Source of the DNA: Candidatus Hodarchaeota archaeon
Lineage (GTDB): Archaea > Asgardarchaeota > Lokiarchaeia > Sigyniarchaeales > SOKP01
Reading direction: 5' to 3'
DNA: 64,000 bases
Assembly (NCBI GenBank): GCA_048887225.1
Contig: JBHLJY010000002.1
Coordinates: 1-64,000, forward strand
Position 1 is the first letter of the stretch. Each line of letters starts with the position of its first letter. The translations under genes were made by a program, and so were the position numbers. The notes below the pieces were generated by a model. It was not told the origin of the DNA. It worked only from the letters and a program-made list of their open reading frames with translations, and ran no database searches. Shown here piece after piece: positions 10,250 to 13,198 of this stretch.

Positions 10250-11254
10250 ATGGCAGCATCAGGAGAATTAGCGGCAGATATAAGAGAGAAGGTTATGCAT
10301 ATTTTAAAAATAGAAGAAGAAAAAACAGATTTGGACAATTTAACCGTTTTATCAACAGTAGGATTAAAAGTTGCCTCCTCAACTTCATCAGAGTTAGATG
10401 CTGATACGACTTCTGCTTCAAGTACAGCTTTAATCGACCTCGGACTTCGACTCAGCAAAGCAACTCAGCATGGTTCGTTGATGGAAATCCTTTTACATAA
10501 TGCTGCAGGATATAGTATTTTAATGGCTATTAATGAGAGCTATATTGTATTTAGTGGTTTAAGCGTCCCCTATCGTATTGGATATTATCTTGGTTATCTA
10601 CGAGAATTGACAAAAAAATTAAATATTATTATTTCTGGAGAGGAAATTTCTGAAATGGCACTTTCTATACAAGAAGAAGAGCTACAAAAAACACTACAAC
10701 GACAAGAAGAAGAAGAAGCTTTAGCAAGTGTGGCAACGCTCCCATCGATTGATAATGACAAGGCGGCTATGGACGATTTATTAGGTTATTTAGATGAATG
10801 GGATCAAGAAGAAAAAGAAGCAATGGGTATTGAGGATATTGAAGAGTTAGAAACAAATAACATTATATCCATTCCCAAATCAATGACTGTGGGGATTCCA
10901 AAAGAGAGTGAAACTATATCGATTCCTGAAGAAACTCTTCAAGAAATTAAACAAGCAGATCAAAGTCAATTTAAATTATACGAGGATGAGGTACCTCCTA
11001 TTCCACTTGACGATTATACACCAATGGATGTTGAAGAAAAAGCCACTCAAGAAGCAGAATATCACGAAATAGCTGTTCAACAACCTACCATTGAAGCTAA
11101 AACTGATGAATTGCCCTCTCTTGATTCTTTACCTCCTCCCGATTTTGACTCACAATTAGTCTCTTCGGAATACGATACTAAATTTGTGTTAGAAGAAGAA
11201 TCTGAAGCATTAGACTCTGTTTTAAAAGAATTAGGATGGGAAGAGGAGGATTAA
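10250..11254 (+). CDS. Roadblock/LC7-domain protein with long acidic low-complexity tail
   Basis: LTVLSTVGLKVASS..DTTSASSTAL..GSLMEILL roadblock pattern; E/D/P-rich tail of about 200 aa. Confidence 0.75.
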   Translation: MAASGELAADIREKVMHILKIEEEKTDLDNLTVLSTVGLKVASSTSSELDADTTSASSTALIDLGLRLSKATQHGSLMEILLHNAAGYSILMAINESYIVFSGLSVPYRIGYYLGYLRELTKKLNIIISGEEISEMALSIQEEELQKTLQRQEEEEALASVATLPSIDNDKAAMDDLLGYLDEWDQEEKEAMGIEDIEELETNNIISIPKSMTVGIPKESETISIPEETLQEIKQADQSQFKLYEDEVPPIPLDDYTPMDVEEKATQEAEYHEIAVQQPTIEAKTDELPSLDSLPPPDFDSQLVSSEYDTKFVLEEESEALDSVLKELGWEEED

Positions 11255-11356: not shown

Positions 11357-11656
11357 CTAGTATCGACGATCCTTTACTAAAACTTTAACATTTAAAGCTT
11401 CAGGTCCCTTTCCTTTTTCTATATCTTCTTTTACTTCAAACTCAACACGGTCTCCCATATCTAACTTTTTAAAACCGTCCATGTCAATATTAGAAAAATG
11501 GACAAAAATATCTTTTTGTCCTTCGTCACCATTCACACTAATAAAACCATAGCCTTTTCGATAATCGAACCAGAGTGAAATGAGTCAGAAAACGACCTAT
11601 TTTTTCACGTGTCCGGTTAATCGGCTACTAGCTGGCTTTCTTTTTTCATTTGCCAT
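11357..11656 (-). CDS. csp: Cold-shock protein (CspA family), two exons 11603-11656 and 11357-11572; 89 aa if spliced
   Basis: Manual translation [18 protein letters not shown]|[71 protein letters not shown] with RNP1 KGYGFI and RNP2 IFVHF; missed by ORF track because of stops in the insert. Confidence 0.9.
11573..11602 (-). other. Putative 30-nt bulge-helix-bulge mRNA intron
   Basis: Insert AAATAGGTCGTTTTCTGACTCATTTCACTC with in-frame TAG and TGA; central helix GUGA/UCAC flanked by 3-nt bulges AA^A and UC^U; canonical cuts restore the frame. Confidence 0.8.
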
Positions 11657-11833: not shown

Positions 11834-13198
11834 ATGAACTCAATTTTTGACAGAGTTTTAGAGATTTTTCAAAAATATTATATTTGTCCACATTGTCTTG
11901 GAAGAATTTTTGCTTTGTTAGGGACAAGTACTACAAACTTAGAGAGAGGAAACTCGTTATTACTTTCATTTACTATGGAAAATCATAGAAAATATTTTTC
12001 AGGAGATAAAAATTATGAAAAGACTACAATTAATAATCTGAGAATTTTGGCTGAGAACGCAAAATTTATACCAGCTCAAAAGGTTTTAGAGAATGAAGGA
12101 TTTGATTATTCCAAAGCGAGATTGGACAAAAAGTGCTATTTATGTAACAATATTTTTTTAAATTTACAAATCTATGTAGAAAAAGCAAAAGAAATTGTTA
12201 AATCTATTGAATTTAATAGTTTTTTAATTGGCACGAGTCCAAATTCCGAGATAATTAATCGGGAAGATATTTTCAAATCAGAATTAAATATCTTAAATTC
12301 AGAATCGTTTAAGAGCCATTTCAATCGCGTTGTTGGAAAAAAAATATCTGAGGAATTAAAAAAAACAGTTGAATTTAATAATCCTGATATCATTTTATTA
12401 TATTCAATAGGTTTTGAAAATTTTAATATAGAATTAATATTTAAATCTATTTTTATTGCTGGAAGATACAATAAACTAATTAGAGGCATCCCCCAAACTC
12501 GTTGGATATGTAAGAATTGCCAAGGAAAAGGATGCGATATTTGCAATTTTTCTGGTAAAAAATACGAAACAAGCGTAGAAGAATTAATTAATCCTGAATT
12601 CATTAAGGAGACTCATGCATCAGATTCAAAATTTCATGGAGCTGGACGTGAAGATATTGACGTAAGAATGTTAGGTACTGGAAGACCATTTATTCTAGAA
12701 TTAAAAAACCCACAGAGAAGGATTTTAGATTTAGACAAAATTGAAAAAAAAATTAATCAAATTAATGCTGGAAAAATAAGAATTTGTGATCTAAGATATA
12801 GTAACAAAAAAGAAGTTATTAGCATTAAATTCAGAGCAGAAAGCTCAAAAAAAACATATAAAGTATTAGTAGAAGCTGAAAAAGGTTTAAATTTGGATAA
12901 ATTTAAGGACCTAATAAACGAATTAAAAAATAAATTTGAGAATCAAAAAATTTCTCAAAGAACACCAAGTAGAGTGTCTCATCGACGTGCTGATATAATA
13001 AGAAAGAAAATGATTTATAACATAGAAGCTCAACATATTAAACCTAACTTATTTGAATTTATAATTGAGACTCAGGGTGGGACTTACATCAAAGAATTAA
13101 TCAATGGTGATAAAGGTCGGACAACTCCATCCTTCGCTGAAATATTTAAAATTCCCCTCATTTGTAAAGAATTGGATGTTATAAGCGCAGAAAACTAA
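11834..13198 (+). CDS. pus10: tRNA pseudouridine(54/55) synthase Pus10
   Basis: GRYNKLIRGIPQTRW, HGAGREDIDVRMLGTGRPF, GGTYIKELINGD. Confidence 0.95.
   Translation: MNSIFDRVLEIFQKYYICPHCLGRIFALLGTSTTNLERGNSLLLSFTMENHRKYFSGDKNYEKTTINNLRILAENAKFIPAQKVLENEGFDYSKARLDKKCYLCNNIFLNLQIYVEKAKEIVKSIEFNSFLIGTSPNSEIINREDIFKSELNILNSESFKSHFNRVVGKKISEELKKTVEFNNPDIILLYSIGFENFNIELIFKSIFIAGRYNKLIRGIPQTRWICKNCQGKGCDICNFSGKKYETSVEELINPEFIKETHASDSKFHGAGREDIDVRMLGTGRPFILELKNPQRRILDLDKIEKKINQINAGKIRICDLRYSNKKEVISIKFRAESSKKTYKVLVEAEKGLNLDKFKDLINELKNKFENQKISQRTPSRVSHRRADIIRKKMIYNIEAQHIKPNLFEFIIETQGGTYIKELINGDKGRTTPSFAEIFKIPLICKELDVISAEN

Follow-up and report, generated by a model that had tools for sequence, protein, structure and literature searches.

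A putative bulge-helix-bulge intron in a cold-shock protein gene of an Asgard archaeon

A cold-shock protein (csp) gene on the minus strand of the window, by which we mean the whole 64,000-nt stretch of DNA analysed here, is interrupted by 30 nt at 11602-11573 that are very probably a relaxed bulge-helix-bulge (BHB) intron of the hBHBh' type, cut by the endonuclease EndA and with its exons joined by the ligase RtcB. Comparison with orthologues indicates that the insert must almost certainly be removed from the mRNA, and we infer that this occurs through cleavage and ligation of the csp pre-mRNA. To our knowledge, such interruptions are very rare in archaeal protein genes, with crenarchaeal cbf5 as almost the sole documented example. 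The kind of element proposed here, a BHB intron in an mRNA, is therefore known, and what is new is the gene, the phylum, the occurrence of two insertion sites in the same group of orthologues, and the accompanying inserts of similar kind in rtcB and other genes. The csp gene would add a second gene family with an mRNA BHB intron, in the lineage closest to eukaryotes, and it brings comparative evidence in the form of two independent insertion sites and intron length evolution. It also offers a system in which the entry of BHB introns into mRNAs, and whether their removal is regulated, can be tested. Our search of the full-text literature, which covered few subscription journals, turned up no earlier account of BHB introns in the mRNAs of Asgard archaea, although one may exist.

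The interrupted csp gene and its predicted fold

Exon 1 (11603-11656, minus strand) consists of an ATG at 11656 followed by 17 codons (18 in total) and ends in GHVK, the first half of the beta-1 motif (GxVK) of the cold-shock domain (CSD). The insert (11573-11602, minus strand; AAAUAGGUCGUUUUCUGACUCAUUUCACUC) carries in-frame TAG and TGA codons and is followed by exon 2 (11357-11572, minus strand), whose 71 codons (11572-11360) contain the RNP1 (KGYGFI) and RNP2 (IFVHF) motifs and end in KDRRY before a TAG. Owing to the in-frame stops, an unspliced message would yield a 19-aa peptide, and the joined exons encode 18 + 71 = 89 aa. Exon 2 alone covers positions 7-65 of the 66 in the Pfam CSD profile (PF00313), with an E-value of 2.9e-21 and a score of 75.5 bits (cut-off 27); it misses only the first beta-strand residues of the domain, which are exactly those in which exon 1 ends. 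The preliminary description of this DNA had reported a csp gene split by 30 nt with in-frame TAG and TGA, and its coordinates, the 19-aa peptide and the 89-aa product were all verified; its placement of the DNA in an Asgard archaeon also held, as the closest orthologue-bearing relatives are Promethearchaeota. The host genome (3.27 Mb in 49 contigs, 98% complete) encodes four further Csp paralogues, all uninterrupted and reading GTVKWF. The csp gene neighbours an archaeal Pus10 gene (11834-13198, plus strand), and related contigs share the order Pus10, csp and a 334-aa protein. This last protein (10250-11254, plus strand) is encoded convergently with csp, has an acidic, low-complexity C-terminal half, and had no match in Pfam.

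Read 5' to 3' from 11602 to 11573, the insert is laid out as 1 nt of the 5' bulge, a stem strand of 8 nt, a loop of 7 nt, the second stem strand of 8 nt, a helix strand of 4 nt and 2 nt of the 3' bulge. All elements of the predicted fold lie on the minus strand. The central helix has 4 bp, formed by the exon strand GUGA (H, 11605-11608) and the intron strand UCAC (H', 11575-11578). The 5' bulge AAA (11602-11604) is closed by this helix and the 8-bp inner stem, with a predicted cut at 11603/11602, after the second bulge nucleotide. The 3' bulge UCU (11572-11574), with a predicted cut at 11573/11572, makes up, together with G 11571, the longer strand (4 nt) of a 2x4 internal loop. The inner helix h' with its loop (11579-11601) pairs AAUAGGUC (11601-11594) with GACUCAUU (11586-11579) around the loop at 11593-11587 and includes one A.C mismatch and one G.U pair in the window copy. 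The outer exon-exon helix h (11566-11615) pairs CGGAC (11615-11611) with GUUCG (11570-11566), with 100% of cells paired, and 2 nt (5' side) and 4 nt (3' side) lie between it and the central helix. Since the 3' UCU sits inside this asymmetric internal loop, the motif of the csp insert is a relaxed BHB. The fold previously proposed thus stands in its GUGA/UCAC helix, AAA bulge, mismatched inner stem and 7-nt loop, but not in its outer closure, as the outer helix does not directly abut the 3' UCU.

The csp junction can be set by homology to insert-free orthologues, which places it between VK and WF, and this agrees with the bulge rule. A cut after the second bulge nucleotide gives GUG AAA↓UGG UUC, i.e., VKWF as in the insert-free orthologues, and the earlier claim that the EndA rule restores GxVKWF exactly is therefore borne out at a junction defined by homology. 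The observed helix and inner stem at this junction were reached by 2 of 20000 shuffles of the window copy's intron. It should be noted that the window copy has a slipped alternative as its minimum free energy (MFE) structure, at -16.1 kcal/mol, with the BHB fold at -14.9 (1.2 higher). The MFE structure is the BHB fold in G002, and the alternative MFE folds of other orthologues differ from one another; a conserved competing fold that could act as a splicing switch found no support among the orthologue MFE folds compared. The insert matched no Rfam family, and it has no second copy elsewhere in its own genome, where only chance matches of 11-15 nt were found.

In the mechanism that we propose, the csp pre-mRNA would fold by pairing GUGA of exon 1 with UCAC at the 3' end of the intron, with the 8-bp intron hairpin inside and the exon-exon helix outside. 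A heterotetrameric (alpha-beta)2 EndA would cut each bulge after its second nucleotide, and RtcB would then ligate GUGAAA to UGGUUC, creating the junction of CACGUGAAA with UGGUUCGAU in an mRNA for the 89-aa Csp.

Orthologues, covariation and selection

A search of 60 related genomes and a species-representative collection recovered approximately 68 csp orthologues from Promethearchaeota with 60-99% identity over exon 2, a group clearly apart from the canonical paralogues, which are ~50-55% identical. The nearest relatives with an aligned orthologue are metagenome-assembled Promethearchaeota (formerly Lokiarchaeota), e.g., isolates QM1B.325, AMARA_1S, TEKIR_6S and LW60_4. The majority of orthologues are insert-free and read M...G[FHYWI]VKWFD, an unbroken G[HFWY]VKWF being present in ~55 Promethearchaeota genomes. 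An insert exactly between VK and WF (site A) is present in fifteen loci from independent assemblies, and its length is 30 nt in G000, G002, G024 and two metagenome contigs, 29 nt in four contigs and the NCBI record JBHLMF010000010.1 (L158), 53 nt in G005 and G006, and 54 nt in G009. The metagenome set for this site comprises five contigs from independent projects (six loci, L152-L157), with one insert sequence common to L155-L157. A second position five codons downstream (site B, WFDxR↓KGYGF) carries inserts of 29, 30 and 31 nt in G011, G023 and G030, three species of another genus. Four csp copies that are truly damaged or masked (L089, L091, L101 and L114) were left out. The start codon, open frame and GHVK ending of exon 1 are retained in all insert-bearing orthologues. 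A gene tree of 22 orthologues left 11 of 17 forks open, which limits the history of gain and loss to a statement of at least two sites.

The length variants are themselves informative. The hairpin UCGAUCUCCGA is common to the 29-nt and 53/54-nt inserts, which are distinguished by a second hairpin, so the intron evolves by indels without regard to the reading frame. A retained insert whose length is not a multiple of three would destroy exon 2. Among G005, G009 and G006 (L007/L008/L009), the 204 nt of exon 2 show 0-1 differences and the 53/54-nt introns ~7 differing positions and a 1-nt indel, mostly in the second hairpin; the intron interior changes faster than synonymous sites.

The predicted fold is supported by covariation. 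Junctions were placed by protein homology alone and the BHB geometry was asked afterwards, the pairing rule being that the 4 exon nt before the last two exon nt pair with the 4 intron nt before the last two intron nt. This helix is paired at 4 of 4 positions in all 16 insert-bearing csp loci examined, and its partners co-vary (GUGA/UCAC, GUGA/UCAU, GUAA/UUAU, CCGC/GCGG, UCGU/GCGA and CCAG/CUGG), in that the codons (V-K; Y/N/A-R) fix the exon strand, which the intron strand then matches. An intron hairpin of 6-9 bp lies directly 3' of the 3-nt 5' bulge, and the bulge rule also fits the 29-, 53- and 54-nt variants and site B. Nine csp introns from genomes were shuffled, and for eight of them 0-8 of 20000 shuffles reached the observed structure; the count for the ninth was 153 of 20000 because the simple counter does not credit a stem with a 2-nt bulge. 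Across five distinct variants of 30 nt, pairing reaches 98.8% of cells and both sides have changed in 7 of 17 pairs (6 of 8 for the inner helix), a result matched by 0 of 500 shuffles; pairing falls to 28-48% when the partners are slid by 1-3 columns. At stem pair 4, two contigs have A-U and G002 has G-C; the window copy has A.C, and its stem is thereby slightly weakened. The mean energy of the exon-exon duplex is -7.1 kcal/mol in 9 insert-bearing loci vs. -3.2 in 56 insert-free orthologues, which is suggestive of stronger exon-exon complementarity in insert-bearing genes, these loci being related and non-independent. The preliminary description had proposed testing Asgard orthologues for same-position inserts with compensatory BHB pairing, and such inserts are present alongside insert-free orthologues.

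Exon 2 is free of stops and frameshifts in every insert-bearing copy. Its dN/dS is 0.03 for G000/G002 (7 synonymous differences and 1 non-synonymous), 0.21 for G000/G005, 0.13 for G005/G024 and 0.07 for G011/G023, compared with 0.05-0.15 for insert-free pairs. Relaxed selection on this copy had been named beforehand as evidence that would speak against splicing; what is observed is purifying selection (dN/dS 0.03-0.21). If the inserts were retained, exon 2 would be untranslated in all of these lineages and out of frame in those with 29-, 31- and 53-nt inserts.

Splicing enzymes and other interrupted genes

The host genome encodes two EndA homologues (PF01974) of 201 aa each, located at C1:186656-187261 (plus strand) and C3:60977-61582 (minus strand). 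One has the Tyr/His/Lys catalytic residues and is closest to crenarchaeal alpha subunits, with structure matches to 3P1Z_B (E 5e-35), 3AJV_B, 2CV8 and 2ZYZ_B. In its counterpart the catalytic His is replaced by Asp, and this protein is read as a structural beta subunit. Asgard EndA has been described as an (alpha-beta)2 enzyme with an L1 loop that gives broad specificity for relaxed motifs (Kaneta et al., PMC5829648). A single RtcB gene is present and is itself interrupted, meaning that ligation capacity depends on the same splicing assumption.

The rtcB insert (C13:33458-33486, plus strand; L117/L118) is 29 nt long and separates ...ISPGGVGY from DINCGCRLL; it has a UUGG/CCAA helix, its bulges read AU↓A and AA↓A, and its 8-bp stem is perfect. 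It is common to G002 (L150) and G021 (L149, another genus) with wobble-compatible changes, and rtcB is uninterrupted in 32 other related genomes. The acs gene, on the csp contig ~25.8 kb past the end of the window, has two 30-nt inserts with in-frame stops (C2:~89799-89828 and C2:89906-89935, plus strand) at GEPI↓NPEAW and WQ↓TETGG, with a 77-nt mini-exon between them. The first has a helix paired at 3 of 4 positions and a 7-bp stem, and the second a GGCA/UGCU helix with bulges AA↓A and AA↓C. The gene for ribosomal protein uL11 (C4:~65565-65700, minus strand; L161) is broken twice within its N-terminal domain, in the order KALVTGG, an insert with TAA TAA, ASGGPPIGPA, a frame-shifting insert and LGPTGINIKD, and only positions 21-58 of Pfam PF03946 are matched in one frame. 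A cell could hardly live with a broken uL11 or RtcB gene. The cbf5 gene of this genome (TruB_N; C13:47028-47369, plus strand; L159/L160) has no interruption and forms a single 337-aa frame.

A genome-wide BHB scan (central helix of 4 bp, 3-nt bulge, inner stem of at least 7 bp, two 80-codon frames fused) recovered the rtcB insert and a 36-nt candidate at C4:215764-215799 (plus strand), with a GGCT/AGCT helix and a TTTGCT/AGCAAA stem, whose removal would join ...DLFDPQMA to MGMGASVLAINPL in what is presumably an acyl-CoA dehydrogenase gene. The scan returned 70 hits vs. 52 expected at random positions, making it non-specific and unusable for counting introns. ARAGORN found only 32 tRNAs in the genome, 15 of them with introns and several of these at odd positions, and the tRNAs that it missed are probably interrupted at non-canonical sites. 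These counts agree with the intron-rich tRNA genes described in some Asgard lineages (PMC11291895; bioRxiv 10.64898/2026.10.13.758758).

Taken with the csp data, these genes lead us to favour, with moderate confidence, a broader proposal, namely that this Asgard lineage has a population of EndA/RtcB-dependent mini-introns (~28-54 nt) in protein genes, including the essential uL11, the sole rtcB and the metabolic acs and putative acyl-CoA dehydrogenase genes, and that these were gained repeatedly where codons supply half of a BHB helix, as at the two csp sites. If true, interrupted protein genes and obligatory mRNA splicing would be commonplace among close prokaryotic relatives of eukaryotes, and rtcB would need its own product, a ligase splicing its own mRNA, to be expressed. 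Most probably the csp intron is removed constitutively and belongs to a set of ~30-nt mini-introns in the protein genes of this lineage, and is not a csp-specific switch; that housekeeping genes have like introns speaks for such constitutive removal.

Alternative explanations and known systems

Several other explanations of the insert deserve consideration. The csp gene could be a decaying pseudogene, one Csp paralogue too many (the fifth) that lost its function through the 30-nt insertion, as might be thought from the four intact paralogues, the two in-frame stops and the truncated public gene calls. However, exon 2 has stayed open at low dN/dS across insert-bearing lineages with saturated synonymous divergence, exon 1 has retained its ATG, frame and GHVK ending, the BHB fold has been maintained by compensatory changes, and the Pus10 synteny persists. 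We consider decay of this kind highly improbable, and the open exon 2, low dN/dS and kept exon 1 exclude it for practical purposes. Compensatory change also bears on the idea that the insert stays in the mRNA and is crossed by ribosome bypass, as in phage T4 gene 60, or by readthrough. The insert is indeed short and hairpin-forming, with a stop codon soon after the take-off region, but the codons are unmatched (AAA before the insert vs. CUC, CUA, UAA or UAU before UGG), there are two stops, and lengths range from 29 to 54 nt; bypass would also leave unexplained why a co-varying 4-bp helix and 3-nt bulges fall exactly at both junctions. There is very little to recommend this reading.

An origin at the level of DNA, as an assembly artefact or a mobile hairpin of the MITE/REP type unrelated to splicing, might be suspected for any short hairpin-forming sequence in a metagenome-assembled genome. 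NCBI, ENA and JGI projects together supply at least 12 independent assemblies with same-site inserts, and these, the insert's uniqueness in the genome and the lack of a visible target-site duplication make this origin barely credible; an assembly artefact is ruled out by the number of independent assemblies, and a mobile DNA repeat by that uniqueness. Removal from RNA by enzymes other than EndA and RtcB, be it another endonuclease and ligase or a self-cleaving fold, is unlikely, although the relaxed motif and the interruption of rtcB itself leave some room for it. The geometry is that of an EndA substrate (4-bp helix and 3-nt bulges cut after the second nucleotide), as in spliced crenarchaeal cbf5 (PMC2738675), no Rfam ribozyme or other family was matched, and the genes for both EndA alpha and beta are encoded. 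The EndA/RtcB-dependent intron is thus the reading that we retain.

The introns of crenarchaeal cbf5 pre-mRNA measure 16-44 bp, have mostly relaxed BHB motifs and need a hetero-oligomeric EndA (Watanabe 2002; Yoshinari 2006; Yokobori 2009, PMC2738675), and their patchy occurrence among related species has been read as gain and loss (PMC2738675). The csp introns are alike in being short, within coding sequence and mostly relaxed, with a cut between the second and third bulge nucleotides (predicted for csp), in their patchy distribution and in their presumed dependence on a hetero-oligomeric EndA. Unlike cbf5, csp encodes a small RNA chaperone in the phylum Promethearchaeota (Asgard), has two insertion sites in one orthologue group and two length classes (29/30 and 53/54 nt) related by a hairpin indel, and is accompanied by inserts in rtcB, acs and uL11 in a genome where cbf5 itself is uninterrupted. 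Spliced cbf5 cDNA has been sequenced, whereas csp splicing is predicted here from DNA comparison. The csp intron also resembles BHB tRNA introns in its motif, size range and presumed enzymes and in repeated gains where the exon supplies half of the helix. It differs from them in that its host RNA is an mRNA and the exon half is constrained by codons (GUG-AAA, CGC-AA), and splicing would restore a reading frame, whereas tRNA splicing restores the cloverleaf.

In eukaryotic HAC1/XBP1 splicing, IRE1 cleavage is followed by ligation by Trl1 or RtcB. The csp proposal shares with it the non-spliceosomal character, a protein endonuclease, two cuts at stem-loops, RtcB-type ligation (for XBP1) and a changed downstream frame. 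However, the enzymes (IRE1 vs. EndA/TSEN) and recognition motifs differ and HAC1/XBP1 splicing is stress-regulated, making the comparison an analogy only. The idea of HAC1/XBP1-like regulated splicing of csp, raised in the preliminary description, becomes less specific in view of the like inserts in rtcB, acs and uL11.

The annotation of these genes has suffered, as had been anticipated. The joined full-length Csp of G000 or G005 type is absent from a collection of 5.8 billion proteins, which holds only truncated calls of 57-74 aa. Public gene calls at insert-bearing csp loci are 57-59 aa fragments that begin at an internal GTG or ATG, or a 74-aa call. Such truncated and mis-started calls would bias Asgard proteomes as well as estimates of completeness and pseudogenes. 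One record, JBHLMF010000010.1 (L158:301-588), has a deposited 95-aa cold-shock protein with the artificial N-terminus MRKVKKESFNWTRKKLDRFPDNLY, which arose because the 29-nt site-A intron was read through in the frame of exon 2; the real exon 1 of this locus is MAKKKKLEKSKKNLSTGHVK, in another frame.
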